The position numbers were made by a program, and so were the translations under genes. DNA of 63,536 nucleotides, filler included, from Octopus bimaculoides (taxonomy: Eukaryota): assembly GCF_001194135.2 (NCBI RefSeq). It is 5 parts of 5 records of this genome, joined end to end, with 100 filler letters (N's around TTAATTAATTAA, not from the genome) between each part and the next. Parts side by side here need not be neighbours in the genome. Positions count along the whole stretch, not along the records: positions 1 to 15,027 come from NC_068988.1; positions 15,128 to 31,975 come from NC_068987.1; positions 32,076 to 50,519 come from NC_069003.1; positions 50,620 to 61,521 come from NC_068991.1; 1 more part is not named here. One strand, given 5' to 3'. Shown in pieces: positions 86 through 60,395 of the stretch. Positions within the stretch are counted from its first letter, which is position 1; every line of letters starts with the position of its first letter. The notes under the pieces were generated by a model that was not told where the DNA came from, did no database searches, and saw nothing but the letters and a program-made list of their open reading frames with translations.

Positions 86-315
86 TTTGCCAGGTTTTTC
101 TCTCTCACCAAGGTCATCAGCTGTCGAACGCCGACGAAGGGAAATAACCCTGAAATCCGGATACGTTCGTGCTGCTGGTCGTGGTGAGAGGGATAACTCC
201 CTTGGCAAACAGGACACAGTCGTGTGTCGATAAGCCAGCTGGAGGAGATGTCCTCCTGGGGCTAAAAGCAACAGTAACATCCACCCCTAGGGGTCAGCCA
301 CACTTAAGTGGCAAT
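86..315 (+). mobile_element. GC-richer structured island carrying a hammerhead; candidate PLE pseudo-LTR / retrozyme-like element
   Basis: Long-range pairings visible by eye: TTTGCCA(86-92)/TGGCAAA(203-209), CTCTCACCA(102-110)/TGGTGAGAG(182-190), CAGC/GCTG just outside hammerhead stem I, hairpin GACAC(213-217)/GTGTC(224-228), GGAGG/CCTCC, CCCCTAGGGG. Element identity is inference. Confidence 0.45.
125..169 (+). ncRNA. Minimal type I hammerhead ribozyme motif (U4C core variant)
   Basis: CGAACG-CCGACGA-AGGG aaataa CCCT-GAAA-TCCGGA-TA-CGTTCG: 6-bp stem I, 4-bp stem II, palindromic stem III, AUA cleavage triplet at 161-163. Core is CCGACGA rather than CUGANGA. Confidence 0.7.
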
Positions 316-322
316 ATACTAC

Positions 323-353
<31 letters not shown>

Positions 354-1415
354 GGGTGGGTGTGTATGTGTGTGTATATGTATGTATATATCTACCTTTA
401 TCTTTTAGGAAGCTAAAAGCAACGGCCTGTCATAGAATGGCCATTGGTTTCGCACCTATCACGCGCTTAATAGTATAGGAGACTCAATGAGCAGCCATAT
501 CTTTTAACTTCCTAAAAATATATATTGCTGCTCTAATACTTTATTATGTGCTTCCTTTCCGGGTATATAAAGTACTGATGATTTGTGTGTGTGTGAGTGT
601 GTGTATGTGCGTGTGCATATGTGTGTGTATGTATGTGTTAGTTGTTAGTGTATGTGCGTGTGTATTGTTGCTATTATGCAAAAGTGTTGTAAATCCAAAG
701 TGTTCCTTTTTCAGAAAACGAAAAAATAGTTTCACAATTCCATAGCAAACCCGTTGTACTCCACTTTAACAATTTTTCACATCCTGGCATTTGAAGCAGG
801 TGGTGATACGACAGTGTGACGAAGCAAACATAAATATTGAAGCAAATGTTTTTGGCCAAATTTGGACATACGACAGTTTAAGTTAATATCTACGCTATAT
901 ATGTATGTATGTATATATATATATATATGTTTGGAACTACCGTATCTCCAGTTGCTTCAGATGCCAAGATGACAAAAATTGTTAAAGTGTTTGTGTATGT
1001 ATATATATATATATATGTTTGGAACTACCGTATCTCCAGTTGCTTCAGATGCCAANNNNNNNNNNNNNNNNNNNNNNNNNNNNNNNNNNNNNNNNNNNNN
1101 NNNNNNNNNNNNNNNNNNNNNNNNNNNNNNNNNNNNNNNNNNNNNNNNNNNNNNNNNNNNNNNNNNNNNNNNNNNNNNNNNNNNNNNNNNNNNNNNNNNN
1201 NNNNNNNNNNNNNNNNNNNNNNNNNNNNNNNNNNNNNNNNNNNNNNNNNNNNNNNNNNNNNNNNNNNNNNNNNNNNNNNNNNNNNNNNNNNNNNNNNNNN
1301 NNNNNNNNNNNNNNNNNNNNNNNNNNNNNNNNNNNNNNNNNNNNNNNNNNNNNNNNNNNNNNNNNNNNNNNNNNNNNNNNNNNNNNNNNNNNNNNNTGTG
1401 TGTGTGTGTGTGTGT

Positions 1416-1449
<34 letters not shown>

Positions 1450-2769
1450 CTGTGTGTGTGTGTGTGTGTTTGTGTGTGTGTATGTGCCTGTGTGTGTGTG
1501 TGTGTGTGCATATATGCATTTATATATACATATACCGATATTTATAAAACACGCTTTACATATTTGAAACAGCATTAAATTAAAATTTCCATCTATGTAT
1601 CTTCTATACATCATCTACTTAATCCATGCTATAGTTTTTGTGGGCGGAAAGAACTTCGCCATATACACGAAATGTTAAAAATATCTTGCAGAAGTGATTC
1701 ACGTGGAAGTTAGACATATCTTAGATTATTTGAGCCTTGCCAATGATGAGCCCTCGCTAGTCACATTATTTTATTTGCGCAAAAGCCATACATTAGGATA
1801 TTTGATGGTGTATATTCGCTAAGCATAACACATAAATGGCCATTTTGCTTAAAAGCTTTTCAATCACGTACACCAAGCTTTTATTCAGTTAGGCAGAAAT
1901 GCTGCAGCATCAATGTTTTTAAAGGGGCGTAATTCCATTTAGACATGCGTCTGCTGAGTTAATCTCATTGACATCGTCCATGTAGGTTAAAGCGTGTCTT
2001 ACGTGTTTGTAAATCAGTGTTGGATCGATGTCTGTCTCAATCAGTTATTTTATACACGACATAACATATACACGACATATTTTATACACGACATAACAAA
2101 GATGAGGTTTTCTCCCAAGAAAAATCGACATCATGCAACTTACCAGTGCACATAAATTATGATACGTAGATGACTCTTATAAATATATATATATAATATG
2201 TATGTATTTATATGTGTTTCTGTGCGCGTGTGTGTATGTCTAAGTGTGAGAGTGTGTGTATGTGTGCGAGAGTAAACCTTCAGAATACCTTAAAATCAAA
2301 ATAGAAATCTTCGGGTGAGTGCTCATAATATCCAATAGCTTTCTCTCCTTACTAGTTTGAGCAATTTTTATAAAGGAAGGTGCCTTTAATAGCAGGGCTA
2401 AATATTTCCGGTTTCGTAACAGACCTAGAAATCTTATGAAGAATTCATTTATCTATTGCAGTTGATTATTTGTTCCTATATTCTAAACAAATGAAATACA
2501 AAAAAATTTCGAATTCCACATATGGCCGGCAGATATAAAATTTTTACTGCTTTGTGGGTACTGATAAAGTTAAAGAAAATTCTTCTTTTGCAGTTTATAT
2601 TTACATCAACCTCTTTTTCATCCCCATTATTGAATATTTTGGTTTTACGTTGTTCAATCATTTTACACGATATCTGAAATATAGGGCAACCAAAAATGCG
2701 AGAATGGAAAGAGACTGAAGGTTAATTGAAATATAAATTGCAGATGCAACATGAGCGGAAAAAAAAACT

Positions 2770-3035
2770 ATATCACATTTACTACATCTCATGTCCAGAC
2801 TGCAATGCAGATTATATTATTCAAATGGTGCAAAGATGAATGTATCTCATTAGGGCAAATAAGCAACGAATCAGTGAAACAGCACTTGAAGATGTTCCCT
2901 GCAGTAAACGACTTCAAATTTAATAAAATAGAGAAGTTTAAATGTTTTCTTTTAACAAAATTTAGGTTCAAAATGATCAACTAAGAAAGGCAAAAAAAGA
3001 AAATTCGATAATAATTCTAGTCCGAAAGTAAACGG
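2770..3035 (+). mobile_element. Decayed GIY-YIG endonuclease fragment of a Penelope-like element
   Basis: Manual translation with stops: IYYISCPDCNADYIIQ...VPCSKRLQI...NDQLRKAKKEN. This resembles the PLE endonuclease pattern IYxIxCxxCxxxYIGQT...PxSEH...LRxAKE. Confidence 0.5.
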
Positions 3036-4146
3036 AAAACATTGAAATTACTCTATAAAAATTACTCAATAAAAAGTGTGACTAGAAAGCTGTAAATAGC
3101 GAAAGTTGGTTAAGGTTTCGAAAACTCACTTCCAAATTATTTTGCGTCATTGTTTTCTAAAGATATTTTATGCAATTAATAATTTCTAATTTAAGAAAAT
3201 AATTCGTCAGATAGTATGAATGGATCAATAATGCTAATATTTATATATATATGTATATATATANNNNNNNNNNNNNNNNNNNNNNNNNNNNNNNNNNNNN
3301 NNNNNNNNNNNNNNNNNNNNNNNNNNNNNNNNNNNNNNNNNNNNNNNNNNNNNNNNNNNNNNNNNNNNNNNNNNNNNNNNNNNNNNNNNNNNNNNNNNNN
3401 NNNNNNNNNNNNNNNNNNNNNNNNNNNNNNNNNNNNNNNNNNNATATATACGTATATGTATGTATGTATGTATCAGACGGACCGATAGACTGTATGATCA
3501 ATTCACTCATTAAAGGAATAACTAATTTGTATTTGGAACTTACGATCGATTGAACTCCATGTTTTTTAGCATTATTTTATACAATAGATTATTTTCACTT
3601 ATTATTCATTGCAGTAATTAAATTAATATGCTTCGCATAAGAGTCTTTATTTTTAAATCTATTCATTTCTATATAATATGTATTGTTTCCATAACTTCTT
3701 CGAGTGTGTTTAAACAATTCAGTGTATTCTTTTACGAATTTTGAAACTGACTTCAAATATTGATTATTCATTTGGATGAATAATAATATCTCAATATTGA
3801 TGATATTGTCTTCGATTGCGCCATTGTTTTAATTATCTTTCTCAAACGAACCAATGAGTAAGCATCTACACAATCTTTTGACCTGCCCTAAATTGACACG
3901 GCTACAACTACTGCAGCATTAATTACTAAAATATCATACTACTAAAATATACAACACTAATTAGTAATGAACAGACGCACGTCCCTCAAATCAATCGAAG
4001 CAAATTTGAAATAAACAAATGAATCGTTAGTTTTGGTACGCTTCTGAACATGTGTCTACTGGAATGAGAATAATTAAGATCTAAATAACAATATCGAAGG
4101 CAAGGCAAAATTTCTTGTTAATATCTTACAGGGATATGATTTTAGA

Positions 4147-4215
4147 TGCAGGCATGGATGCGTGGTTAAGAAACTTGCATTTCAACCACAGTTTCTATAA
4201 CCCTGGGCCATTTGA
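4147..4215 (+). mobile_element. Degenerate head of SINE group B
   Basis: GCAGGCATGGATGCGTGGTTAAGAAACTTGCATTTCAACCACA matches group B heads at 45879, 49810 and 59217. Confidence 0.5.
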
Positions 4216-4527
4216 GAGAATTTAGGAGACAGAGACTGTTCGAATGTATATACGCATACACAGACACACACGAACACACGCACACACAAACAAACACACA
4301 TACACACACGCTCATAAATATATATCAGATTTTGGATTGTTTATATCAAGCAAGCTCCAAAATCTGGTTTAGAGGCGTATTTAATCTTCGCTCAATCTGT
4401 CTTTGTCTTTGTCTCTCGGTCAGTGTGTCTGATTGTCTGCTTGCCTGCATCTCTCTCCCCCTCCCTGCATTAAACTAACAACATATCTACCTATTTTCAC
4501 ACCACTCGCTGCATTAACGAAAACTGC

Positions 4528-4589
<62 letters not shown>

Positions 4590-5638
4590 TGTATTGCATG
4601 CATGTATGTACGTAACACATCCTCTTATTCTTTCATTCGTAGTCTGACACTTTCATATTTATACTACTGTCATTTAGTTATGAATGCAGGAATAAAAATC
4701 TTTGTGTGCCACTGCCGACGAATCATTCTTTCAAACTCCAGTGGAAAGACATGCGCTTTCGTATCACTTTCTAAAACGAACATTGTCATATATATATTCT
4801 ACCATTAAATCATATTTTCTTAATAAATTTACATTCACCTTGTAGCTATTTTTCATAAATATACATAATAAAAACTAAATAGTACCTAATCAGAAATCTC
4901 GGAATATGACTATGAGAATGAATTTCTCTTCCGATTGATATTTGTGTTGGAAAGTCAATCTATACTCCACGTTTTGCCTATGTTCAAAGAGAATTGACGT
5001 CACTGACAACATGCAAAAAAAAATAGCATTTAATAAATATAGTATTTATGATGTGTGCTATCTTACAGTAGCTGAATGTTAATGCCTTGACAACGACATT
5101 AGAAGATCTTGATAGTTGGAGCATCGACAGAAAAAAAGAAAATTAAACAGTGTTTGCCTTGCAAGCATATGATCAGAGATTTTGTGTATGGAATACCTAT
5201 AGGATGCAATCACATATTTATTGACCGAGTTTTTAATATCTTCATAAATATACTAATTGATACAGTTGCAGATACAAATAGAATTGGAGATAGGGCAATG
5301 AAGCATTAAATGATTGATTTTATATATTCTAATATTGTAGAACACATAATCGCATATTTCAAGTAAATGATGTTTTTAGTATAATATTCTATATCATTCT
5401 CCGATCAAAGTAGAATGCGCGTTAAAACCTTTAGATTCTGACACTCGGCTTCATAGAACTCTTCCATATTTCCTCTGCTTTAGTCCTACATATATTACCG
5501 GCAGTAATTTGTAAGAAATTTCAATAACCTCAGTATACTTGATCTTCCTTTATAATTATTCAGTCTGAATGTATCTATTTTCAGTTACCTAAAGTTTCAG
5601 TGACCTGAAGGTATTTCAGGCTTATGTGTGAATATATG

Positions 5639-5691
<53 letters not shown>

Positions 5692-8199
5692 NNNNNNNNN
5701 NNNNNNNNNNNNNNNNNNNNNNNNNNNNNNNNNNNNNNNNNNNNNNNNNNNNNNNNNNNNNNNNNNNNNNNNNNNNNNNNNNNNNNNNNNNNNNNNNNNN
5801 NNNNNNNNNNNNNNNNNNNNNNNNNNNNNNNNNNNNNNNNNNNNNNNNNNNNNNNNNNNNNNNNNNNNNNNNNNNNNNNNNNNNNNNNNNNNNNNNNNNN
5901 NNNNNNNNNNNNNNNNNNNNNNNNNNNNNNNNNNNNNNNNTATATATATATATATATATATATATGGATATATGTCTGTCTGTTTGTGCGTGTGCTCGCC
6001 TGTGTTTTGTAAGTATACATGTATGCATATATATTAAGATACATATGTACATATAGATATCACACACGTGCCGTATGCAAGAACGCACACACACACACAC
6101 ACACATGCACACGCACACACACATATGAACAGGAGAAGTGAGAGAGATATGCTTCATCATAGTTTCTCTATTGAGCTTCCTGTTGTTGACAAGTCTTTTT
6201 ATTCTAATAGCTTCAATCTTCGAATCGCTGTTCTCTGGTGCTCTGCTACAATCCTTTTCTTTGCATCCGACCAACAATATTCACTCTTTAAGATTTCCAG
6301 AAATGACATCTTTGGAATATATAGGTTCTCTCTTATTCAGTGTCTGCGAACGCTTTCTCTACTGAGGTGCTCGCAAGCTTTGTTTAAGGCAAAAAGATGT
6401 AGAAACTTAACTTGACTCTGCTGCAAACATTTAAATAAAGCAACTACTTCTTGTATTTAGCTTGAGAGAAAATTATGTCACTTCTACCCATCCATAACTC
6501 GAATAAATACTGCTTGCTTTATACTAGAAGGTATGTTACCAGGGTGTAGAATTTATGAATTCTTTACATGTCTTTATGGTTTCTACTCTTATGCGTAAAT
6601 ATTTAAATAAGCAAGAGGAATATATTCCAGTTAGTTTTAGAAAGTACTCTTAAATATGAGAGTAGTAAGTACAGCTGCCACCATCCCGTTGACAAGGCTT
6701 AAATTTATTTGATAAATAGCGTGAGCCGGTTAAAAAAATATGTTGTAATTTTATAGATTTACACGTTACCTAATGTTTAAATTTTTAAACGGCTTTATGG
6801 GCTTTAGACTAACACTTTATTTGAGAAACCATTTATCGATGACACCAATTTTGTGTAAATATGGCGAAGAAGAAATAATTCAGAATCCTCTGCGAATTTA
6901 GAAATTTGTCATTTATAACATTGTGAGAATTAAAATAAAATCTTTAAAAGCATTTTAAAAAATTGTTTTATGTATGGATCGTTTTGAAATTTCCTAGTTT
7001 AAAACGTATTGTTGAAAGAATTTGAATGTTGATGGCTTTTAGTATCTCCAAGAGAATGGAAAGATGCAGAAAGAGGATAAAGGAATTTTAAATTATCGGA
7101 TGATGGTAAATGTGAAATAAATTCTAAAATGGAACGTAAAACTGCATTAGTCTTATTGTGCAGTAATTTTCCATATGGTAATGCCATGTAATATATTCAT
7201 TAAGACGATTGATATTTTGAAACACATAGTTGCTTGCTTTTAGTGGTTTCAATAATTTTAATTGAAGAAAAGATATTGCAAATGTTTTTCCTTCTCTGAT
7301 TGGAATATATTAAATTATAAGAACAAATGCTTTAGTGTCAGATTTTTACATTTTATTAATTAATAATAAATTCAGATATTCTTGTCTGGTCCTGTTATAT
7401 GTCAGCCACGCGTTTTATTTTAATTATTTTTCGTATTTGAAGTGAGAGCTAAAGTGAAGGTACTCTAATGCATTAGAGATAAACATTATATTTCTAAGAG
7501 TTACAGAGGTAAACACAATATATATGCAGACTTTGTTAAATACCAATTCAAAACCCAGAAACTGTTTAATTTTCAGCTCTAAAGTATTTTGTAATAGACG
7601 AATATGTTTTGATGTTAATCGATACCATAAATTCAGTTTGAGATCGGTTTATTGGAAATCGGAGACAGGACATTGCCTCTGTCAAACAATTGAGTAATGC
7701 TGTGTAAGAAATCATTCAGTCGATAATTAGGTACAAAAGATTTTAAGGGATTTATTTATTAAATTATATGACATGCAACATCCTTACTATCTTCAGAAAT
7801 CTCAAAATATTCAGATATATATATCTATCCTTTTAGAAAATATATTGATCTCATTATCGTTACCATTCTACTGATAGGTTTTGTTACTGTCCGTGTTGGT
7901 GTTTTTGGAAGTGTTGTGGATGTTAGGGTTGATGATCTCCCACTACAAACGATAATTTTATCCATCTTTATATCTATCAGAGATAAACCGTGATTAATTC
8001 TGTAAGTTTTCGAAATATTCAATAACACAATGAATCTAGCGGAATCAAATCAATTTTTGCTTTACTCCCACAAACTTATCATTCTATGCCAATGAAAATA
8101 ACGCAATTGTTTTTGCTGTTGATGTTTCTTGTGATAGAGGTCGCCGCCCATTGCGCTAAAATTAATACAATATTTACTCATATCTTCCTATATTCTCAC

Positions 8200-8254
8200 T
8201 TCAAATTCTTTATATGCCATACTGTTACGATATCACACTAAGCGCAGATCGACC

Positions 8255-8294
<40 letters not shown>

Positions 8295-8421
8295 GTGTGT
8301 GTATGTGTGCGTGTGTGTGTGTATGTGTGTGTGTGTGTGTGTGTGTCTGTGTCTGTGTGTGTGTGTGTAGCTGATTTGCGCTTGGTGTGATCGTAACAGT
8401 ATGGCATACAAAGAATTTGAA
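8200..8421. repeat. ~50-bp inverted repeat enclosing a (TA)n/(TG)n tract (MITE-like hairpin)
   Basis: Arm 8200-8250 TTCAAATTCTTTATATGCCATACTGTTACGATATCACACTAAGCGCAGATC equals the reverse complement of 8373-8421 except for 3 substitutions and a 2-nt indel. Confidence 0.85.
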
Positions 8422-10223: not shown

Positions 10224-10417
10224 GGAGGGCGGTGAGCTAGCAGAATGGTTAGAATGCGGCTTGTCTTCAGACTTAACGTTCAGCGTTCAGATACCACTGA
10301 GGTCGACTTCACCTTTCATCATTTCGCAGTCGGTAAAATAAATAGCTGTTGATCTCATTGCCTTACTCCCTCCCATGAAATTACATGTCATCTACTTATG
10401 TATGGCAAAAACGATTT
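10224..10417 (+). mobile_element. SINE group A with 14-bp target site duplication
   Basis: GGCGGTGAGCTAGCAGAA head and GTCGACTTCACCTTTCATC core. TATTTTACAAGTAT occurs at 10210-10223 and 10418-10431. Confidence 0.8.
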
Positions 10418-13137: not shown

Positions 13138-13199
<62 letters not shown>

Positions 13200-13994
13200 C
13201 GGACGGATGCTAGTCGCATCGGCTCGCAAGTAAGTTGGCCTTTTATATGTCAAAAATGTTGCAGTTTTAAAATATTTTTTTGTGGAAGAGGTGTATAAGT
13301 CTATACACTTCGACCCTATTGGGTTTTTGTAATAGGAAGTGGCTCCTTCTGGAGTTTATTTCCAAAAGTTTTTGATTTTTCTCCGGCTTATTTGCCATAT
13401 TNNNNNNNNNNNNNNNNNNNNNNNNNNNNNNNNNNNNNNNNNNNNNNNNNNNNNNNNNNNNNNNNNNNNNNNNNNNNNNNNNNNNNNNNNNNNNNNNNNN
13501 NNNNNNNNNNNNNNNNNNNNNNNNNNNNNNNNNNNNNNNNNNNNNNNNNNNNNNNNNNNNNNNNNNNNNNNNNNNNNNNNNNNNNNNNNNNNNNNNNNNN
13601 NNNNNNNNNNNNNNNNNNNNNNNNNNNNNNNNNNNNNNNNNNNNNNNNNNNNNNNNNNNNNNNNNNNNNNNNNNNNNNNNNNNNNNNNNNNNNNNNNNNN
13701 NNNNNNNNNNNNNNNNNNNNNNNNNNNNNNNNNNNNNNNNNNNNNNNNNNNNNNNNNNNNNNNNNNNNNNNNNNNNNNNNNNNNNNNNNNNNNNNNNNNN
13801 NNNNNNNNNNNNNNNNNNNNNNNNNNNNNNNNNNNNNNNNNNNNNNNNNNNNNNNNNNNNNNNNNNNNNNNNNNNNNNNNNNNNNNNNNNNNNNNNNNNN
13901 NNNNNNNNNNNNNNNNNNNNNNNNNNNNNNNNNNNNNNNNNNNNNNNNNNNNNNNNNNNNNNNNNNNNNNNNNNNNNNNNNNNNNNNNNNNNNN

Positions 13995-14960: not shown

Positions 14961-15027
14961 AGAGGAAGCTAAAACTTTCGAAACGAGTAAGTAACCTTCT
15001 CTCTTGTCTCTTTTACTGTCGTGTATG

Positions 15028-16745: not shown

Positions 16746-16775
16746 TCATGTACATACATATATATATAATATATG

Positions 16776-16943: not shown

Positions 16944-17704
16944 GATATTTCTATAGAGATACATAGATAGATAGATATATCCTATGATGAGTAACTTTGA
17001 ACGGATACTTTTACGGGTATGGAAAATATCAGGAAATATGTCACATATATAATAGTTGTGATATATGTTTCTTCAATTTACTTGGTGCTGATACAAAATG
17101 ATGAAATGAATACTAATTTTCAATAGACAAAAATATTTATTACCTTAAAACAAATTAAATAAAGCCAATTTCTCATGGGTATATTTGCAATAAATATATC
17201 ATATTTTTCTAAATTTTTCAAACGTAATCGTTATCTCTACAAAGTTTCTTTAAAAACAGTATACATTTATGCAAATATAAAACACTCGACTTGAACTTTG
17301 TTTGTTAAATAGCCACGTATCTTTCTCTGGACACGCTCACTCTTCCTCTCTCAATTATTTCTTTATTATATGCATTTGGGAGTTAATTGGAGTGAAGTCC
17401 ATTCTTTTTCCGGTCCAAATACAATAAACAGTGGGGTGACAAAGAGAAAGGAAAGTGAGATTGATAAAGAAGGAAAGAAGAAATGTATTGATCACAAAAT
17501 TGAACTTAGCCTCAAGTCTTTCTAAGTAAGACTATAGAAGACTTGAAGACTAAGCTGACCTCAACTTGGTTTAGATTCAGTTCGTAGAAAGGCAGAAAGT
17601 GTATCGTTAAGGAATCTACACATTATCCAAGCTCCTTATATCTATCTTTCTTGCTATCTATCCATCTACTAACCTATGGAGATATATAAACACACAGACA
17701 CACA

Positions 17705-22659: not shown

Positions 22660-25087
22660 TTAACTCTTGGTCTACCAGAGAAAATGTATTTCACTAATTA
22701 CCAACTGGGTCCAGTGGACCCAATATTTTTCTTTTAATTAAATTTTATTCAAGCTACCACTGTTTCTTAGCCGCATTATATATGCCATCGGGTGAATGAA
22801 AAATTACTGTTTCTCATGAATCGACCCCAATAATTATTCTTTGTTAAGCCATGTACTTATTCTATTGGTCTCAGCTTACATGATATATTATATATTAGAA
22901 ACTTTACAAATGTACAGAATTACAGCTCTTCATGGCATTGAATGCAGACAATGCTGGAATGTTCTTGGCAAACATGGATTTAGAATTCTTACATGTAGTA
23001 GAGGTCTCCTGTCTTTTTTTGGGGTCACACAAAGAACATCACCCTTTTTTCTTTGGCTGAGGAATCTCAAATGATGGTGAAGATCGTCTTCTTTTCTTGC
23101 TTCGTTGAGATGTGTTAGCAGAACTAGAAGATTGTTTGTCATATTCTTGTTTAGCATTAACTCCAGCAAGTTTCTTTCATAACTGAATTAGGCATTGTCT
23201 TCTTTTATCCTTGAAACTTTGCAAGTGAAACTCTATAGCAACAATGAAAGCATTCACAGCAGTTATATCAACCATGTTGTAGAGTATAACAATAGGCCAT
23301 CTTCGAGTCATTCTCTTGCAAGTGTATGTTCTTACCATCTTCTCTAGGGTGTTTACTCCTACTTTTGTTTTGTTGTAACTTGTAATAACTTCAGGTTTCT
23401 TTTCAGTACTTTTTGAATCAATTGAAGGCTGAGAGTGCATTATACTCATAAGGGTGAGTACGTAATTTATCTTAGAACAATGAAATAGGATCAGAGGATC
23501 CTTTTGAAATCCAAATATTGTGTTGTTGATTTCTCTTTCTTTTCCATTTGTAAAAGCAGTTGGAAGTTCAACTCTGTTCTTTCTAATTATTCCAACTAAA
23601 GTAGTTTTCTTGCTAAGCAGCTTTGGAGCGAATCCTAGACTTGTAAAAAAATTATCACAAGTTATATTGCAACCAGTATTTTCAACTTCTTTTACTAGGT
23701 CTTCAACAACACTTGAACCTTGATTTGTCTCTCTCTCCCTTTTACTGGGTCTTTTTCAGTGTAGATGTGCATTTTCAAGACATAAGATGTTTCACTGTCG
23801 CATATTACCCAAATTTTAATTCCGTATTTAACTGGTTTTGAAGGAATATATACTCGGAATGAGCAGCACCGTTTAAATGAAATAAATTGTTCATCAGCTA
23901 TCATGCATGAACTTGGTGCAAATCCATCTTGCAAAATCTGATTCCACATTTCAAATACTTCTCTTATGGGCTCCAATTTATCATCACTTCACTTTTTTCC
24001 TTCTTTCACTAGCATCATCAAAACGCCATACTTGTAAAATCTGTTGAAATCTTCCCCGGTTCATAATTTTGTTGACTATTGGTGTGACATTTTCATATTT
24101 AGATTTACAAACACCTATATGAATAATCAGTCCCAAAATTTCTTTAGTTCAAAGTGATCAATTTTCTATTTCTATTTGTAAGCAACCTGACCGTCAACAT
24201 TTGTCCATTTACGAATTACTTCAAGAAGATTCTGTTGCATAAACACGGTAAAGCATTTTTCAATTCTATCGCATGACCTTTTAGCAAAACAGGATGGTCC
24301 ACATTCCTGGCGCACAATATTGCACGATAAGTTTCTTACTTCTGCTTGAGTAAGAGGATCAGAATGTCAAACTTCTGATCTGTCTCTAGAAACATATTGC
24401 ACATTCATAATTGGGAGGCTTGCAGTTAATTGCTTTTGAGTATCTTCAACATCTGATGACACAGAACCTAAACTGTCCAGCACACAATCACTTTCACCAT
24501 TATCTTCTTCCCATTCTTTATTTAATTTCAATAAATTTGTCGATATTTGGATTTCAATCAAGTTTGCAAGCATAACAGAACTATATGAAACTTGATAGCA
24601 AACTAAAGGCAGATATTGCTCTCTCACATATTTATACTCTCCAGAAAGATGATGCAATATATTGTAAGAATTGCGACATCACAAAGAAATATTGCATCAC
24701 GCTACAACCTAGCAGAAGGAAGGTGATGCAATACCACACAAACTTACAGGAATATTTTCATAATTTTTCCTATTTTGTCTAAAAATTCAGCAAAAATATC
24801 TAGGAAAATAATATTTGATAATGCTTTTATTCTGTTTAGAATGACAAGAGTATTGTCTGAATTTAATTCGAGGGTCCAATACCCTTACGGTATTTAATGC
24901 ATAAAATGAAATTTTCTAGATTTTAAAAACATTCGGAAAATTTCCCATTTGGCAAATAAAAGCGAGTGAAGAAAAAATAAGAGTCACGAGAAATCAGCAG
25001 AATCAAATAATATAAACACTATGAAAAAGCAACTGAAAAAAAAAACTGAAATGGGTCCATTGGATCCGTTCGTAGTTGGAAGGTTAA
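22660..25087 (-). mobile_element. Near full-length degenerate piggyBac DNA transposon (transposase pseudogene)
   Basis: Minus-strand fragments: ADEQFISFKRCCSFRVYIPSKPVKYGIKIWVICD, ITCDNFFTSLG...TLVGIIRKNRVELP, YNKTKVGVNTLEKMVRTYTCKRMTRRWP and a C-terminal Cys-rich remnant. TTAA at 22660-22663 and 25084-25087; subterminal inverted motif TGGGTCCA(G/T)TGGA at 22706 and 25052. Confidence 0.9.
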
Positions 25088-51833: not shown

Positions 51834-53479
51834 ATTTTGGCGCAGCACGCATAGCTCCAGCGTTGTCCTTTAGAATGTAGTATCACAGCGATAAACATAT
51901 TGGAAAGCTGGTATAATGTTAGTGTAGCCCTTAAATCGTTACCAAATTCTGCTTTGAATGCCACTGTCATCATTCATTATGTTAAAACATCAGATAAGGT
52001 CAATGACACCGTGTGGATATGTGTGTGTATATACATACGCACACACATACCTCTTGACATATGTGCATATGTAACTGTATGTATACGTATATGTATGTAT
52101 ATACATACATACATATATATATATAAAATATATATAAAAAATACATATATGTATGTATCTATGTATAAGTATATATGCATGTATGTTTATATATATATAT
52201 ATATATACATACATATACACATCTATCCATACATATGTATGTATATTTGTATATGTATATATGCATGTATGTGTTTGTATATATATATATATATATATAN
52301 NNNNNNNNNNNNNNNNNNNNNNNNNNNNNNNNNNNNNNNNNNNNNNNNNNNNNNNCATCCATCCATACATACATATATATATATAAAATATATATAAAAA
52401 ATACATATATGTATGTATCTATGTATAAGTATATATGCATGTATGTTTATATATATATATATATATACATACATATACACATCTATCCATACATATGTAT
52501 GTATATTTGTATATGTATATATGCATGTATGTGTTTGTATATATATATATATATATATATAAATGCATATATATATGTATATATATATATATATATGTAT
52601 ATAAATATATACATTCATGTATGTATATGTGTATGCATGTAGTTATAGTGATATGTCTATGCAGATGCATACAAGGTGTCATTGACCTGCAATGTGTGTG
52701 CATGCACCAGTGCGTATGTATGTGCATGTGCGTGCGAATATCTACATATATACACATACACACGAACAAAGAGTCCGGGGTCGTCGTGTGTGTCTTTTTT
52801 TTAAAATTTCATCTGTCATTATTCTTCAAAATGTTTTCAATAAAATCTCATCCGAGCATCAAATCACTGACAAAGGACTTTTGATGGAATTCGGAAAACG
52901 GTAAACAGTTTCTTTTTTCCTTTATTTTAAAAAAAAATTTAATTAACATTTCTAAAACAAATGGGTGTCATTGAAAAAAAAAATATATTGTTGCATATTT
53001 TTTTCCATTTTTTTTTCTTCTTTAGAATCGAACGAGGGGTCATTGTAAGAATAGATTACACAAAGAAAAAGGGTTTATACAGAATATCGGAAGAACGAAT
53101 GATGAAACAATGGTATACCCTCCAAGCATCGATCTATTTTCTCTGTCTTCTATTGTTTGGTGGGTCGTAGGAGTTAAATTCTCGACAACCTCCTCCATAG
53201 GGTTCCATCAGAAACGACCATCATTACACTGTTCAAATACGTGATAAATTTCATAGTAAGGGGAACCGTCAAGTAGCGGCAACCAAAGACCGTCACAGAT
53301 TCAGGATTAACCTGATTCACAAGGATCAGTGCCTTCTCACAGTTGTCATTTTCCAACATACAAACGGTGTGAAGGAACATTCCGATCGAACTGGAAGGCA
53401 AGTTAGCTGTGCCATCGTGCCAACGACGCTAACGAACTGAAATCGGCCGTCGCGGAAGTGAACCTAGTTGGTACCATTC

Positions 53480-53806
53480 TAGCACTCCGTCAGTCAAAGA
53501 CGCTGATAGTTCTAGTTGATCTGATCAACAGAACAGCCAGCTCCTGAAATTAACGGTCAGGTGGCTGAGCAGCCCACAAACACGCGTACCCTTAACGTAG
53601 TTCTCAGGAAGATTCAGCGTTACACATGATGGAACAAGGCTGGCCCTTTCAAATACGGGTACTACTCATTTTTACCAGCTGAGTAGACTAGAACGACGTA
53701 AAATAAAGTGTCTTGCTAAAAGACACAACGCCCCGCCTGGAATTGAACTTTCGTAAACCGAATACGATCGTAAACCGAATACCAACCACTAAGCGACGCA
53801 CCTTCA
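53480..53806 (-). mobile_element. SINE with group C tail but a different (CORE/V-like) body
   Basis: 53500-53660 matches the tail at 56255-56400; the body AAAGTGTCTTGCTAAAAGACACAACG is absent from 56400-56530. Confidence 0.75.
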
Positions 53807-53999
53807 CTGATACCATTCTAAAGAAATAAGAGGCGGTGGTAAGAGCAATGGTTAACCTAGACAAGTAAGTAGGCTTGCAACTCAGCACCTAGAAATACAA
53901 CACCTTATTATCAAACTACATCGCTGAACCATTGGACAGGCTAAATTGATCGGAGTCTTTTTCATTTCGGTCTTCCAAGTCAATAGAAATGGAAGCGAT

Positions 54000-54480
54000 G
54001 TTAGGATAGGAGCTAAGTTACCAATGTCAACCAGAAACGGACTGAAAGATCGAGCAGAACTAGCGAATGCTTACATCACTTCCGCTATAATTGACCGCTT
54101 GACCGTCTTGTTTCGACCCTGGCCAACTATCATCTGAGTAGATTCAGCTTTTTATAGAACGGATGGGGCCTACTAGTCTGACGAACAATCTACTGCCAAT
54201 ATCCTCTATGCTAAAGGTTCGGCATGCCGTAGCTGTTGATGCGCGGGCATGCATTGAAGCAATGGCAACTATAGAGATTCCTGGGACGGTGAACGGGTGT
54301 GGTCTCCCTTCGTAAAATAGGGCTATGTGCTGCTTATCTCTGCCGGAGCTGCAATCCTTGAGTCAAGCAAAGACCAAGACTGGGTGTCTGCTACTTGGAT
54401 TATTGTTAGGTGCTTACAGCCTTCTACTAACCGGGCACTGCGGTTGCACTTGATGTTAGCAATCTATATAGAACTAGTGG
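54000..54480 (+). mobile_element. Tx1/L1-type ORF2 fragment (region downstream of RT), decayed
   Basis: LKDRAELANAYITSAIIDRLTV...FL*NGWGLLV*RTIYCQYPLC*RFGMP*LLMRGHAL resembles the L1/Tx1 pattern F.FLWxG...LVRR..C..P...GGLGMP. Confidence 0.7.
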
Positions 54481-54554
54481 TGGGGAAGAATGATAACGTT
54501 TTCGAAGACTTTCTTCCTAATGATTATGTTTCAGTCATTAACCAACGGCCATTT

Positions 54555-54905
54555 TGGAACCCGTCTTGAAAGGTTTAGCCGAAAACATCGATCCCAGGAT
54601 GTATGCATTTTAAGCCTACCGGTCTCTTTTGCCGAACCGCTAGGTCACGGAGATATAAACAAAACAAGGCTGGCTGTCAAACAATGGGGAAGGGTCAAAC
54701 ACAAACACAAACACACACACATGACACGCACACGCACACACACACATATATATGGCGGGCTTTCATACATGTTCCGCCAACCAAACACACTCGCAATATA
54801 TTGGTCGTCCTTTGGGCTACCGTAGAAGACACACTTGCTCAAGATGCAGCGCAGTTAAACTGAACCCAAAACCACGAGACTGTAAAGCGAGCTTCTTAAC
54901 CACAC
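54555..54905 (-). mobile_element. SINE group B, diverged
   Basis: TAAGCCTACCGGTCTCTTTTGCCGAACCGCTAGGTCACGG and GTAGAAGACACACTTGCTCAAG match group B in reverse. Confidence 0.8.
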
Positions 54906-55064
54906 TGGCAGCCCTGCTGTTGGTACATTTAGATACATTTCAGCGTCACTGTGATATTAGTGGCTGGTGGGGTTTGCTAGGTGTAACAGTGTCACCGATA
55001 TTTGTTTTGCTACTGCTAATATTTCTCTGGGCTTCGAACTAGAGGAAGGAAGCTCTCGTTTGTA

Positions 55065-55275
55065 ATAATCCTTCTTAGTTTTGGCACAAGGCCAGCAATT
55101 TGGAGGGGAGGCGGGGTAGTCCAGTACTTGGCTGCTGTTTTATTTTATGGACCCTGAAGAGAAGAATGGCAGTGTTGACCAGACAGTATTTGAACTCAGG
55201 ATGTAAAGAGCCGGAACAAATAACGCAAAATCTATTTTCTTTTTTACGTTCTAACGATTCTGCTAGCTCCTCACC
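55065..55275 (-). mobile_element. SINE group A, diverged
   Basis: TTTTGGCACAAGGCCAGCAATT tail; TTCTAACGATTCTGCTAGCTC head. Confidence 0.75.
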
Positions 55276-56231
55276 TTATATTTTTTTCAAATGTGAAAAA
55301 TATAAACTGAAGTTCCTGATAATTACGCTCCATTTATTGAATGAAGAACTGAGTGCTCAATAATCTTCTCTAGTTTAAAATTATTATAGATATCGGTTAA
55401 AATATATAACTAATATTTTTTGTCTTCATGCGCATAGTGTGCCAAAACATTTTTCGTATTTTCTGTAAAGCACACGTGAGTAAGAAAAGTAAAGAAGCTT
55501 GGAACACTGCTAGAAAGCAATAAAAATATCTGAATTTCTCTCATCCATTGTTTTCCAACTTGGATTTGTGACCTGATTACTTTGCTACCCACGGGTTTAT
55601 TGAACCTTTTTACTTAAGCATATTTTTGAGAATGGTAAATGCAATTCTTTGATGTTGTATTCCCCATTGTTATAAACACTCTTTAAACTTACAACTCATA
55701 AACTATGGACCGTTGTTATGAATAATTCTTTTTTGGAATAAACGTAAAAAGGAATTTCATGCAGTTGATCAAATTGTAAGTTCCAGTTGATTTCAGGCCA
55801 AATATTTCTGGTCAACGTGATGTATCAACAATAACAGTGATTCTTCTTCATTGTGTAGCAGACCACTAAAAACTACATATAGTCCCTTCCACGCACTTGG
55901 TATCTTAGATATTATTATGTTTCTCAATAGCTCAAAACGATTCTGATGACACACATACGAATCAAATATTTTCTGGTTTGTTGATGCCTTTTATAACCGG
56001 AAAGGTAGTCATCATAGTCCCCATTGCAACATGTTTGGCAAACACTCCTCCTATCATTAAATGATGCTGACAGTGGTCGATGGTCTCTGAAGATATTGAA
56101 TGATCTTCCATTTAAAAATATTCTTGAAATTTACTCAGGTCTATATCCACAGCAAGGCCTTTTTTTTTTTTCAATTTGGTAATACCGTAATTCAATTAAA
56201 GGAAGTGCTTTTGCTAGACATATGTTGTTGG

Positions 56232-56607
56232 CACTCCGTCGCTTATGACGTCGAGGGTTCCAGTTGGTCCTATCAACGGAACAGCCTGCTCGTGAAATTA
56301 ACGTGCAAGTGGCTGAGCACTCCACAGACACGTGTACCCTTAACGTAGTTCTCGGGGATATTCAGCGTGGCACAGTGTGACAAGGCTGACCCTTTGAATT
56401 ACAGGCACAACAGAAACAGGAAGTAAGAGTGAGAGAAAGTTGTGGTGGAAGAGTACAGCAGGGTTCACCACCATCCCCTGCCGGAGCCTCGTGGAGCTTT
56501 CGGTGTTTTCACTCAATAAACACTCACAACGCCCGGTCTGGGAATCGAAACCGCGATCCTATAACCGCGAGTCCGCTGCCCTAACCACTGGGCCATTGCG
56601 CCTCCAC
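56232..56607 (-). mobile_element. Full-length SINE group C (tRNA-derived head)
   Basis: Minus strand reads GTGGAGGCGCAATGGCCCAGTGGTTAGGGCAGCGGACTCGCGG...GGTTTCGATTCCCAGACCGGGCG with A/B boxes. Confidence 0.9.
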
Positions 56608-56864
56608 GATAGACATATAGGTAACAACAAAACATTCGCTACTGGAATTGTGATAGCAATGGTCAATTACGCTGTGCTGCCAATCCAACTATGAGTTCAA
56701 ATCTCGCCAAGATCAACTCTACTGGCCAGTCTTCCTGTATCGACAAAATGCAGAACCAGTTCAGAACGACCAATAGAGGAATTGTACGTGTTGTGTTGAC
56801 GCCCCCAGGCGAAGAATTAGGATCTCCCAAGAAATATAAATAAAGGTAGTCTGGCCGTGGTAGG

Positions 56865-56930
56865 AGTGTTGAGTAGCAGTCGAGTAGTGTTGAGTAGCAG
56901 TCGAGTAGTGTTGAGTAGCAGTCGAGTAGC
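56865..56930. repeat. 21-bp tandem repeat, 3 copies
   Basis: AGTGTTGAGTAGCAGTCGAGT starting at 56865, 56886 and 56907. Confidence 0.9.
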
Positions 56931-58249
56931 AGTTGTGTAGCGGTTGAGTAGAGATCATCCGAAGGTGCTAGATAGCAGTAGCTTGAGACATAACAGTACG
57001 GATGTCCAATAAAATACTTTGGAGTATTTGTCTCAGTTCTTTACGCTTTCAGTTTTTAGGTAAGTGTGAGATTTTGTAAAAAGTACTCGAAGAAAGCAAC
57101 TGAAAACCATGAGAATTCCATAACGAGAACAAGGCACTTATCAAGGAAGACAGCAGGAATCGTTAGTCGACCTGGTGGTGCAGAAAGAAAATGGAAAGCA
57201 ATCCTGTACATGTTTTGTGTTTAGCTGACTTCATCTACAAAGCATAGCATTCGTTTTGTCACACAGTGATAAATATAATCACTAAGGCAATATAGCGTTT
57301 ATTTCAAATAATTTGTTCTCTCAAGTTATGAATGAATCTACTTCTATCAGGACGCAAAGAACGTCACATAAGATCGAAAGAGGTCTATCGTTCTTCATGA
57401 GTTTGTTTTAAAGATCAGATACACACCAATCAGCACTGCCTATAATATTCAAAAATTCCTATTAATCGATCCTATGGGACCTTTTGGTTTTAGGTATTAG
57501 ACACCACTAAAGGGAATTTTTATCTACATCCGTTTTTGACTGAAAGCGTATAAGACGCACTTTTTTCCGAAAGAATGTTTCAAAAATTTACTCCGTTTCC
57601 TATATGCAAAGTTGGACCGATATTGCATGCTATCACCCGTTCACTGAAGAAAGCATATATGTCCACTAAAAATTTCATTACCCTTAACAGCAGAAGGCAA
57701 TTTTATATACGAATCTTGGAATGTCAATTTGAAACTATTTTCTGCTGAGATATGTCAAGTTTATTGTGAGGCAATGTGACTTGCAGAAAATACCAAATCT
57801 AATTTTTTTTTTTGCAGATATTTAACAGCATTATTGGAATAATCATGAAATTCAATTTCACAGTGAAGGGATAATGATGTACTAAAACGTTTTTTCCTGA
57901 AAATAAGCTGTTGGACTCGGAGTGCGCCTTGATATGTTCGGGTGTCTTTTATGCCATCAAATACGGTAATTACTGGAATGTACTCTGATAATCGAAGCTT
58001 CCAATTCACTATACTTCTTATCTGAGGAACTAGCCTAAGTGCATATTAAGCATGCAGAAGAATTCCCTAGGGTACTATCATTTTATCCATATTATTCAAA
58101 TATTTATAAGTAATTTTGCTTTGTGTAGCTAACATGAGGAGCCGAGCAGTGTTAAAAATAGCAGCCAAGTCGGCCTAAAATCACACCCTACTACCTTAAA
58201 ATAAAAGATTCTTTGGATATTGTACCCCTGGTGGTTTCTATCTTTTACA

Positions 58250-58432
58250 CTCTACTTGCTTCAGTTACTGGAGTGCGACCATGCTGAAGCACCACCTTCA
58301 AGGGTTTAGTCGAAGAAATCAATCCTCAGAACTTAGTTTTAAAGCCTCGCCCTTATTCTATCGGTCTTTTGCCGAACCACTAAGTTACGGGGACCTAAAT
58401 AAATCAAAACCAGTTGTCAAGCAATGGCGGAG
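58250..58432 (-). mobile_element. SINE group B 3' half
   Basis: TTCTATCGGTCTTTGCCGAACCACTAAGTTACGGGGAC...CAGTTGTCAAGC. Confidence 0.8.
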
Positions 58433-59153
58433 AATACACACACACACACACACACACACACACNNNNNNNNNNNNNNNNNNNNNNNNNNNNNNNNNNNNN
58501 NNNNNNNNNNNNNNNNNNNNNNNNNNNNNNNNNNNNNNNNNNNNNNNNNNNNNNNNNNNNNNNNNNNNNNNNNNNNNNNNNNNNNNNNNNNNNNNNNNNN
58601 NNNNNNNNNNNNNNNNNNNNNNNNNNNNNNNNNNNNNNNNNNNNNNNNNNNNNNNNNNNNNNNNNNNNNNNNNNNNNNNNNNNNNNNNNNNNNNNNNNNN
58701 NNNNNNNNNNNNNNNNNNNNNNNNNNNNNNNNNNNNNNNNNNNNNNNNNNNNNNNNNNNNNNNNNNNNNNNNNNNNNNNNNNNNNNNNNNNNNNNNNNNN
58801 NNNNNNNNNNNNNNNNNNNNNNNNNNNNNNNNNNNNNNNNNNNNNNNNNNNNNNNNNNNNNNNNNNNNNNNNNNNNNNNNNNNNNNNNNNNNNNNNNNNN
58901 NNNNNNNNNNNNNNNNNNNNNNNNNNNNNNNNNNNNNNNNNNNNNNNNNNNNNNNNNNNNNNNNNNNNNNNNNNNNNNNNNNNNNNNNNNNNNNNNNNNN
59001 NNNNNNNNNNNNNNNNNNNNNNNNNNNNNNNNNNNNNCCTCTCTCTCTCTCTCTCTCTCTCTCTCCTTCATTAATTTTATCTAATTCTGCCTATTAGTCT
59101 GTCTATTAAACATTAAATTGAACTATCAAGCTAGCTATATGTTTGTCTGTCTG

Positions 59154-59200
<47 letters not shown>

Positions 59201-59216
59201 CTCTATATACACCCCC

Positions 59217-59338
59217 AGGCGCAGGAGTAGCTGTGTGGTAAGTAGCTTGATTACCAACCACATGGTTCCGGGTTCAGTCTCACTGCGTGGCACCTTGGGC
59301 AAGTGTCTTCTACTATATCATCGGGCCGACCAATGCTT

Positions 59339-59345
<7 letters not shown>
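59217..59345 (+). mobile_element. SINE group B head
   Basis: GGCGCAGGAGTAGCTGTGTGGTAAG...GGTTCCGGGTTCAGTCTCACTGCGTGGCACCTTGGGCAAGTGTCTTCTACTAT. Confidence 0.9.
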
Positions 59346-59376
<31 letters not shown>

Positions 59377-60355
59377 NNNNNNNNNNNNNNNNNNNNNNNN
59401 NNNNNNNNNNNNNNNNNNNNNNNNNNNNNNNNNNNNNNNNNNNNNNNNNNNNNNNNNNNNNNNNNNNNNNNNNNNNNNNNNNNNNNNNNNNNNNNNNNNN
59501 NNNNNNNNNNNNNNNNNNNNNNNNNNNNNNNNNNNNNNNNNNNNNNNNNNNNNNNNNNNNNNNNNNNNNNNNNNNNNNNNNNNNNNNNNNNNNNNNNNNN
59601 NNNNNNNNNNNNNNNNNNNNNNNNNNNNNNNNNNNNNNNNNNNNNNNNNNNNNNNNNNNNNNNNNNNNNNNNNNNNNNNNNNNNNNNNNNNNNNNNNNNN
59701 NNNNNNNNNNNNNNNNNNNNNNNNNNNNNNNNNNNNNNNNNNNNNNNNNNNNNNNNNNNNNNNNNNNNNNNNNNNNNNNNNNNNNNNNNNNNNNNNNNNN
59801 NNNNNNNNNNNNNNNNNNNNNNNNNNNNNNNNNNNNNNNNNNNNNNNNNNNNNNNNNNNNNNNNNNNNNNNNNNNNNNNNNNNNNNNNNNNNNNNNNNNN
59901 NNNNNNNNNNNNNNNNNNNNNNNNNNNNNNNNNNNNNNNNNNNNNNNNNNNNNNNNNNNNNNNNNNNNNNNNNNNNNNNNNNNNNNNNNNNNNNNNNNNN
60001 NNNNNNNNNNNNNNNNNNNNNNNNNNNNNNNNNNNNNNNNNNNNNNNNNNNNNNNNNNNNNNNNNNNNNNNNNNNNNNNNNNNNNNNNNNNNNNNNNNNN
60101 NNNNATATAATTTTGCTTAAAAGAGTTCCAACACTGTCTGTTTTTATGTTTTATTTATATTCCTGCAGAACTAATGTGGGGTATAGAATATGGAATATAC
60201 AATATATAATATGATATACAATATACAATATAAAATAAAATAACATAAAAATGGATGGCACCCTGAAAGAAAGTATTGAATGTAGATGAAATATTGAGTG
60301 TTCAATATAAAGGATCAAATATATAAATATATAAATATAAATATATATATATAAA

Positions 60356-60395
60356 GGCGACTCGAGTTTCAGGACTATTTCCCTTCGTCATGGCC
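60356..60395 (-). ncRNA. Minimal type I hammerhead ribozyme motif (1-nt core insertion), homologue of 125-169
   Basis: Minus strand: GGC-C(A)TGACGA-AGGG aaatag TCCT-GAAA-CTCGAG-TC-GCC. GUC triplet; stem II/loop nearly identical to the first motif. Confidence 0.65.

Follow-up and report, generated by a model that had tools for sequence, protein, structure and literature searches.

Hammerhead-like motifs with self-complementary stems, noticed at three sites in the genome of Octopus bimaculoides, raise the question of whether they form one family of ribozymes dispersed by Penelope-like elements (PLEs), as the preliminary description supposed, or come from different kinds of elements. The question was addressed in the window, the whole stretch of 63,536 nucleotides (filler included), in which five scaffolds are joined by N44-12nt-N44 spacers.

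Hammerhead motifs in the window

The three motifs were found exactly where they had been located, and their placement on separate scaffolds (1, 3, and 4 of the five) was borne out.

125-169, plus strand: motif 1, type I hammerhead (descriptor, folding)
50344..50423, plus strand: motif 2, hammerhead-like (descriptor)
60354..60417, minus strand: motif 3 (60356-60395) in a 64-bp fragment with a (TA)n run on either side (alignment)

Their palindromes (TCCGGA, CAGCTG, and CTCGAG) and stem I pairs (CGAACG/CGTTCG, AGCT/AGCT, and GGC/GCC) were verified as described, the palindromes being 8 nt long once A15.1 and U16.1 are counted. The proposed common order of helices, GAAA, palindrome, and UH is present in all three motifs, but each has one core deviation. 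None passed a descriptor with zero deviations. Among 11 sites in the window with GAAA, a palindrome, and UH, a near-complete core and helices accompanied these elements in motifs 1–3 only, and their assignment to hammerhead-type motifs with a self-complementary helix III is upheld.

Enrichment over dinucleotide shuffles, the check suggested for the whole genome, was found in the window: with one deviation allowed, three motifs were observed against a mean of 0.009 for hexamer palindromes. When 4- or 6-nt palindromes were allowed, the mean over 1,852 local dinucleotide shuffles was 0.039, and none of these shuffles reached three hits; the P value is optimistic because the descriptor was written post hoc, after the motifs had been seen. 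A plain count of GAAA-N6-UH was uninformative. We rejected an AT-rich match at 51265, obtained using a Cervera-type descriptor with a 2-nt palindrome, and two AT-rich matches at 17207 and 28197 that required two deviations and were within chance expectation. Rfam gave no hammerhead among the matches listed for the window (150 of 159), which were microsatellite matches to microRNA and snoRNA models, nor among the two matches at E ≤ 10 for positions 60-325. The repeat search of the window was likewise dominated by N runs and microsatellites. Folding did not predict the hammerhead fold for motifs 2–4, the last of which is introduced below.

The idea of a single covarying family could not be sustained. 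Only motifs 1 and 3 can be aligned, and covariation is therefore limited to the differences between their palindromes; the set comprises at least two unrelated families, as had also been proposed.

Motif 1 and its repeat unit

Motif 1, the best preserved of the motifs, is a full type I hammerhead, open at helix I. Its helix I (125-130/164-169) has 6 bp, and helix II (138-141/148-151) has 4 bp and a 6-nt loop 2; the core occupies 131-137, GAAA 152-155, and the 8-nt palindrome 155-162, with a predicted cut site after 163. The CUGANGA/GAAA/UH consensus around three helices is preserved except for C instead of U at core position 4 (132), hereafter U4C. Helix II is closed by an A-U pair, where G-C is usual. 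The label "minimal" does not suit this motif, whose helices are of canonical size and whose helix I continues into an extended arm. An internal loop beside the 6-bp helix I is a candidate loop 1 for a putative tertiary contact with loop 2, and the fold of 80-325 has a z-score of -5.0.

86..208, plus strand: imperfect long hairpin arm prolonging helix I of motif 1 (folding)
1..329, plus strand: copy of a high-copy, non-coding, tightly folding unit that ends in (TA)n (reads, contigs, folding)
233..314, plus strand: 3' module common to more diverged repeat subfamilies (read depth, loose ends)

The window begins inside the unit and contains 329 of its 343 nt. A joint leading from 325 to 1, with 18 letters between, was seen in 98 raw RNA reads that start at 53 sites, in three contigs of DNA set X7, and in one contig of X6, a second organism; none was found in data set X2. 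The evidence for a head-to-tail arrangement is this joint in contigs and reads, no long read having displayed a multi-unit array, and since the joint is also present in DNA, it is no proof of circles. The unit is present in very many copies, with 7,852 X7 contigs placed on it, and loose ends indicate that several copies adjoin (TA)n. It has a GC content of 45%, no stop-free stretch of more than 87 codons overlaps it, and its minimum free energy is -112.9 compared to -83.5 ± 4.7 in shuffles (0 of 200 as low). The proposal of a non-autonomous element thus holds for at least one motif, motif 1, which sits in a non-coding repeated element with a head-to-tail joint.

The read evidence refers to the motif-1 unit. 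It accounted for 993 of 12.9 million RNA records (77 per million), which is low for so abundant a repeat, and the reads were divided about equally between the strands. Their starts and ends did not pile up, an observation that is little informative on cleavage because the library was standard and probably fragmented. DNA carry-over or read-through could be the source of these reads. Depth approximately doubles over 233..314, and loose ends before 233 occur in 103 reads of RNA set X24 and 68 X7 contigs.

The C at position 4 is the majority state of the family, with U in 27 of 245 RNA reads and about 5% of DNA contig depth. The C118-G174 pair reads as U-A in a minority of RNA reads (38/214 at 118 and 30/258 at 174; not phased). 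The variant analysis covered 40 listed variants out of 65, and the remaining 25 could include core changes. Of 325 positions, 181 are paired, and only 13 of the 40 variants fall there (P = 0.0014; P = 0.024 for avoidance of pairs with a probability >0.9 only); eight of the 13 keep pairing, one is compensated, and four break a pair. Within 131-163, variants were listed only at 132, 135, and 163 (positions 4, 7, and 17), and the other 30 positions had none (P = 0.016, post hoc); for the 10 invariant core bases alone, the absence of listed variants was not significant (P = 0.26). Variation among copies respects the structure, which is a signature of selection.

Motif 3 shares 21 of 23 nt with motif 1 (E = 0.001 within the window), including helix II and loop 2, while its palindrome differs from that of motif 1 by two pairs changed on both sides in a compensatory manner. 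It has an extra A inside the core and a helix I of only 3 bp. It is best taken as a broken piece from a sister family and as a truncated, probably inactive relative. The helix II pattern common to both motifs had no matches in viral contigs and 11 in metagenome contigs, none of them in a hammerhead context.

Penelope-like relics and motifs 2 and 4

PLE relics had been reported near 2.8 and 62 kb, and both were confirmed by tblastn. An additional hammerhead, missed in the preliminary description, was found next to the second.

2777..3025, plus strand: decayed PLE endonuclease of the GIY-YIG type, interrupted by several stops (tblastn against P0081, E = 3.7e-9)
61880..62156, minus strand: PLE relic, reverse transcriptase thumb and linker, frameshifted (phmmer; tblastn E about 1e-21)
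61734..61766, minus strand: motif 4, minimal hammerhead (descriptor, two deviations)

The first relic matched 7 and the second 110 of 133 fetched proteins in tblastn searches; the match to P0004 was low-complexity and false. Direct Pfam scans of the relic peptides were negative (0/3, with none for the 2777..3025 endonuclease), while longer relatives of the 61880..62156 relic contained PF00078, PF26215, PF01541, and a CxxxxCxxC linker. Word-based homology searches were blank, a PDB sequence search revealed nothing relevant, and the protein atlas gave only leads below 0.9. Further scans for PLE loci found none.

Motif 4 lies 114 nt downstream of the 61880..62156 relic in the sense orientation, the endonuclease part being absent before it, and this is the layout of a PLE with its minimal hammerhead. 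It comprises a 4-bp helix I, a 2-bp helix II with a GAAA loop, and a 6-nt palindrome. Because its core has two changes, this copy is probably dead. A short-helix-II descriptor with two deviations gave three matches against a null mean of 0.08. A U-rich tail separates motif 4 from (TA)n 73 nt downstream, although 16% of all positions in the window are no farther than 75 nt from such a run anyway. Two related PLE loci (L012 and L013) end in a minimal hammerhead, read by eye, 52 and 55 nt before (TA)n; the strict hammerhead script found nothing in L012–L014, and L014, a weak match, was left out. A preference for (TA)n targets is described for related PLEs in the available part of PMC8557442.

Motif 2 has an exact CUGANGA core, a long irregular helix II, and an 8-nt palindrome. 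Its deviations are an additional G preceding GAAA, a bulged base in helix II, and a helix II domain of 53 nt; helix I is poorly predicted (pair probability 0.016), and the 321-nt surroundings fold with z = -1.5 only. On its 3' side, there is a 58-nt U-rich tail followed by (TA)n, as in L012 and L013, and no PLE protein match was found on its scaffold. Motif 2 is likely the degenerate 3' end of a PLE family unrelated to motif 1, and motifs 2 and 4 look like decayed hammerheads of Penelope-element 3' ends.

The suggested link between motifs and relics therefore changes its members: the 62-kb relic is not on the scaffold of motif 3 but has its own hammerhead, motif 4, the only motif directly linked to a PLE relic. 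Motif 1 is 2.6 kb upstream of the 2.8-kb relic, with no sequence link between that relic and the unit and no convincing hammerhead downstream of the relic. The unit showed no similarity to either relic or to the L012 and L013 loci. Motifs 1 and 3 have canonical helices and no link to a PLE open reading frame, and fall outside the PLE minimal type.

Predicted folding of monomers and dimers

In the predicted monomer, the core pairs with its own palindrome: C3-C4-G5 is bound to CGG of the palindromic loop with probabilities of 0.99, 0.99, and 0.86, and the same lock appears in the circular fold. With C4, it is deeper by 2.2 kcal/mol than in the U4 form, which also locks partly. The native palindrome ranks only 7 of 64 in lock strength (13 of 64 at 18°C), the junction energies in this calculation being crude. 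Unconstrained co-folding of two copies gave a double hammerhead with 8/8 palindrome pairs intermolecular, 11/11 core bases free, and an energy 4.9 kcal/mol below that of two monomers.

These folds suggest that U4C may have been fixed as a safety catch that bars unit-length circles from cutting themselves, while adjacent units of a multimeric transcript would exchange this lock for a helix III of 8 bp between them and be cleaved. We put this forward tentatively, with the odds clearly against it; the partial locking of U4, the rank of the native palindrome, and the crude junction energies count against the idea. How monomer circles avoid self-cleavage is left open in the available part of PMC7229834.

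Origin of the motifs

The best explanation, with a probability of roughly 0.7, is that motif 1 lies in a 343-nt head-to-tail repeat likely working as a non-LTR retrozyme copied by PLEs, with motif 3 as a fragment and motifs 2 and 4 as PLE ends. In multi-unit transcripts, one cut would fall in each unit, and it is predicted to occur when two neighboring 8-nt palindromes pair. The unit-length RNAs would be circularized, and the circles would likely be copied back into (TA)n sites by a Penelope-type reverse transcriptase and endonuclease. We infer cleavage, ligation, circles, and PLE mobilization from published retrozymes.

The unit could instead be a satellite-like DNA repeat of retrozyme descent, its ribozyme crippled by U4C, spread at the DNA level and transcribed as read-through noise. 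The C4 majority, the activity-lowering effect of U4C in vitro (PMC3088659, available part), the monomer fold that hides the core, and an RNA signal that is low, comes from both strands, and does not pile up at the cut site all agree with this. It is nevertheless unlikely, since DNA-level spread would not select for variants that avoid paired and core positions, the unit also occurs in a second organism (X6), and a U4C viroid is still infectious according to the same source. Less likely again is that the unit is a pseudo-LTR, i.e., the terminal direct repeat of an autonomous PLE outside the window, with the joint produced by partial tandem PLE copies. Such partial tandems with hammerheads in terminal repeats are known (PMC4209133; available part of PMC8557442), frog retrozymes resemble PLE pseudo-LTRs (10.64898/2026.07.22.740005), and unit copies adjoin (TA)n. 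However, the joint makes a unit of 343 nt that is closed on itself, the helices of motif 1 are canonical rather than minimal, the motif is 163 nt from (TA)n versus 52–73 nt in the PLE-type cases, and the minimal hammerheads of L012 and L013 have no sequence in common with the unit.

Chance matches in a palindrome-rich repetitive genome are a highly improbable source of the motifs, most plausible for motifs 2 and 4. In motif 2, one 4-nt palindrome occurs several times, the descriptor was devised post hoc and met no perfect core, Rfam had no hammerhead among the matches listed, motifs 2–4 were not predicted to fold as hammerheads, and two deviations admitted two extra AT-rich matches. Against chance stand the shuffles, the support of motif 1 by reads, the homology of motifs 1 and 3, and the location of motif 4, which is sense-oriented and downstream of the confirmed PLE relic.

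Comparison with known elements

As a retrozyme, the unit represents, in a new host, a kind of element already known, and the lock is its single testable twist. According to the available part of PMC7229834 (Cervera and de la Pena 2020), the non-LTR retrozymes of coral, mussel, and axolotl are non-coding, 150–450 bp long with a GC content under 50%, and present in many head-to-tail copies; they have one type I hammerhead each, self-paired RNA, and PLEs in the same genome. Mussel units are 350–390 bp. The same features characterize the octopus unit (343 nt, 45% GC, one type I hammerhead, joint in three X7 contigs), and Neptune-like PLE relics are present in its genome. Helix III of motif 1 matches that of invertebrate retrozymes (two pairs and a tetraloop, in the same part of the literature). 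The unit differs in that most copies have C4 and that an A-U pair forms the base of helix II, and its monomer is predicted to be core-hidden, whereas most published metazoan circles, some mussel circles excepted, are predicted to be core-free. In one preprint (10.64898/2026.07.22.740005), only one of nine cloned frog retrozyme dimers was cleaved. U4C itself is known as a natural, tolerated viroid variant (Perreault et al. 2011, PMC3088659, available part); here it predominates in an animal repeat family of high copy number.

Minimal hammerheads of PLE pseudo-LTRs (Cervera and de la Pena 2014, PMC4209133; also Luense et al. 2017, as cited in the available part of PMC6765202) resemble the present motifs in the palindromic helix III suited to dimer cleavage and in the scattering of single motifs left by truncated copies. 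Their layout is shared by motifs 2 and 4, with a U-rich tail before (TA)n. Motifs 1 and 3, in contrast, are canonical in helix II and loop 2; the extra base and the G10.1-C11.1 pair of the minimal consensus are missing from them, except if a G-U base pair is admitted in helix II. The relatives found for the two relics are open reading frames of about 750 aa with a reverse transcriptase, a Cys-rich linker, and a GIY-YIG domain at the C-terminal end, similar in layout to the Neptune/Nematis-type EN+ PLEs in the available part of Craig et al. 2021 (PMC8557442), whereas the window has broken fragments only.

Apart from the lock, the unit exemplifies, as could be expected, a class that was described in 2014–2020, and 235 Rfam-type hammerhead loci have already been counted in the giant squid genome (PMC6962438, available part). 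With the unit, the non-LTR retrozymes gain a likely cephalopod family, and the defined 343 nt can be cloned and probed at once. Most copies of an abundant animal hammerhead family can have U4C; searches demanding CUGANGA and the Rfam models tried miss the motif-1 family and would therefore undercount such elements. The natural C4/U4 and A17/C17 forms provide controls for locking of monomer circles by self-pairing, and the lock, if true, would explain from the sequence itself how the circles of animal retrozymes escape self-cleavage.

Hammerhead motifs in the window

The window comprises AT-rich animal DNA from five small scaffolds with identical spacers between them. A hammerhead descriptor permitting one deviation, composed post hoc after the motifs were known, returned exactly motifs 1, 2, and 3 from the window, while none passed at zero deviations. 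These are the three positions named in the preliminary description, and their number exceeded that in dinucleotide-shuffled sequence: three motifs against a mean of 0.009–0.039, with 0 of 1,852 local window shuffles reaching three. The deviations are a C at core position 4 in motif 1, an additional G ahead of GAAA with an irregular 53-nt helix II domain in motif 2, and an additional A within the core of motif 3. The two-deviation descriptor found six matches in the window versus a null mean of 0.41, the newcomers being motif 4 and two AT-rich matches, which were rejected. Rfam gave no score for any of the motifs, either among the window hits shown or in a separate scan around motif 1.

Hammerhead motifs and Penelope-like element (PLE) relics
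125-169 (+): motif 1
50344-50423 (+): motif 2
60356-60395 (-): motif 3, carrying a core insertion and lying in a 64-bp fragment between (TA)n runs that breaks off 5 nt past the predicted cut
61734-61766 (-): motif 4, fourth hammerhead (two-deviation descriptor)
2777-3025 (+): GIY-YIG endonuclease relic
61880-62156 (-): reverse transcriptase (RT) relic

A 343-nt repeat unit carries motif 1

Motif 1 has a helix I of 6 bp and a helix II of 4 bp with a 6-nt loop, and caps a long hairpin (86-208); in folding computations, its region was far more stably folded than shuffled versions. The motif-1 stretch was present in 20 of the 24 public runs listed, 19 of which contained at least half of its words; two were flagged as possible origins of the DNA. 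Four of the 24 runs were aligned to positions 1-325. A joint from 325 to 1, with 18 letters between, occurred in 98 raw RNA reads with 53 start sites, in three DNA contigs, and in one contig of a second organism, and in none of the X2 run aligned to 1-325. The unit is therefore 343 nt long and self-closing. Of the unit, the window copy retains 329 nt, with (TA)n at its end. The DNA run contributed 7,852 contigs aligned to 1-325, with a summed depth of about two million, which is not a copy number; rough bounds are 1,700 to 70,000 copies.

Part of the unit (233-314, +) is common to more diverged repeat subfamilies with different upstream parts, several of which start or stop at (TA)n, as seen at loose ends of reads or contigs. 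The mobilising reverse transcriptase may recognise this segment. Nearby, at 403-517 and close to (TA)n, lies a 115-bp element whose inverted termini are 17 bp long and which has a 12-mer in common with the 3' module of the unit (261-272).

Variation among unit copies

Variant statistics rest on the 40 of 65 variant rows listed. Paired positions account for 181 of 325, and thirteen of the 40 variants fell there (P=0.0014); eight kept the pair, four broke it, and one was a partner in a C-G to U-A double change. Within 131-163, the listed rows varied only at positions 4, 7, and 17, the other 30 being free of variants; according to the hammerhead consensus, positions 7 and 17 are the tolerant ones. 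Copy variation thus follows RNA structure, and the remaining 25 rows could weaken the core result.

U4 is a minority at position 4, a CpG site (27 of 245 RNA reads, about 5% of DNA depth), and C4 is therefore the family state rather than a decayed base in the window copy. U4C is a known natural variant with reduced in vitro activity that still supports viroid infection (PMC3088659).

Within 98-197 (+), variants 117, 163, 176, and 178 were 2–3 times commoner in RNA reads than in DNA contigs, and variants 135 and 182 were rarer. This weakly hints that one subfamily is preferentially transcribed, the RNA and DNA being from different individuals and different measures.

Predicted dimer and proposed cycle

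In the predicted single-copy fold, there was no helix III hairpin, and core bases 131-133 paired with the palindrome, in the linear fold and in a circular one 14 nt short of the unit. The unconstrained two-copy fold was a double hammerhead in which the intermolecular helix III spanned 8 bp and the cores stayed free; its predicted energy was below that of two monomers by 4.9 kcal/mol with C4 and 9.3 with U4. This computed fold fits the dimer model for hammerheads with weak helix III (PMC4209133).

A unit copy alone would thus have its core bases 131-133 held by its own palindrome, and the meeting of two copies would form the intermolecular helix and free the cores. Cleavage, ligation to circles, and reverse transcription by a PLE followed by insertion would then ensue, all borrowed from the retrozyme model (PMC7229834, PMC7761336, preprint 10.64898/2026.07.22.740005). 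Such a lock could be incidental, given that the native palindrome came 7th of 64 ranked for lock strength. Unit RNA was found on both strands, at 77 reads per million. Circles were without support in these reads: there was no pile-up of ends, and the 325 to 1 junction stands in DNA too.

Motif 3 is a relative of motif 1

Motifs 1 and 3 are identical at 21 of 23 nt across the core, helix II, and loop 2, and their palindromes differ by two double changes. The covariation claimed for all three motifs is real but minimal for this pair and does not extend to motif 2, which could not be aligned with the other motifs beyond the core. Published hammerhead variants with insertions close to C3 had impaired activity (PMC3088659). 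The 5' side of motif 3 (60391-60408) weakly matches the end of another repeat (62270-62287; 16 of 18, E=0.13). The short helix I of motif 3 could thus be a chance chimera.

PLE relics and motifs 2 and 4

The reported PLE ORF relics at 2.8 and 62 kb proved real, being matched by 7 and 110 of 133 fetched proteins, respectively. A relic peptide (62013-62159) retrieved seven proteins, one of them a false match; the six-protein alignment then retrieved 295 longer proteins, and most of the 120 listed carried RT and PF26215, often with GIY-YIG. One relative of the 62-kb relic, P0022, is named from Octopus bimaculoides. The Cys-rich linker of these relatives points to the Neptune/Nematis type as described in PMC8557442.

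In sense orientation, motif 4 follows the RT relic after 114 nt. Downstream of motif 2 are a 58-nt U-rich tail and then (TA)n; folding computation did not predict a hammerhead fold for this motif. In two related PLE contigs, L012 and L013, minimal hammerheads spotted by eye stand 52 and 55 nt ahead of (TA)n, an arrangement that motifs 2 and 4 share, although 16% of window positions are equally close to (TA)n by chance. Filed under bacterial genome assemblies, both contigs carry PLE ORFs of animal type together with the 3' hammerheads and (TA)n; they are probably host contamination.

Other repeats in the window

A 49-bp inverted pair (762-810 and 941-989, 86% identity) and a 62-bp direct duplication beside a gap (906-1055) may be either a small element or an overlap in the assembly. 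A 97-bp tandem duplication spans 62954-63143. Broken frames at 23180-23988 (-) resemble a piggyBac-type DDE transposase, and the fragments at 38824-39130 (+) and 62600-63140 (-) appear similar to RTE/CR1-type LINEs in their RT and C-terminal region. Dispersed SINE-like repeats, octopus-like in appearance, form at least two families of many copies.

SINE-like repeats
First group: 44558-44675, 45878-45970, 49810-49935, 54782-54917, 59217-59346
Second group: 10225-10352, 27050-27184, 33334-33549, 34837-35014, 42627-42846, 45059-45613

Classification

The window samples two known classes. Motif 1 probably belongs to a non-LTR retrozyme family, of which motif 3 is a broken relative; motif 4 is a PLE 3'-end hammerhead, and motif 2 probably is another. 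The preliminary interpretation, non-autonomous elements mobilised by PLE machinery and possibly producing small circular RNAs, stands as to the motifs and both relics, but the circles lack RNA support and no sequence link was found between the 343-nt unit and the PLEs (both relics, L012, and L013). The giant squid genome paper gives 235 Rfam hammerhead loci. No octopus or cephalopod retrozyme and no U4C retrozyme family was found in the literature covered, and the PMC7229834 supplement, the species tables of 10.64898/2026.07.22.740005, and Luense et al. 2017 may list either. What makes the finding of interest is that most copies carry U4C, together with a lock hypothesis that can be put to the test.
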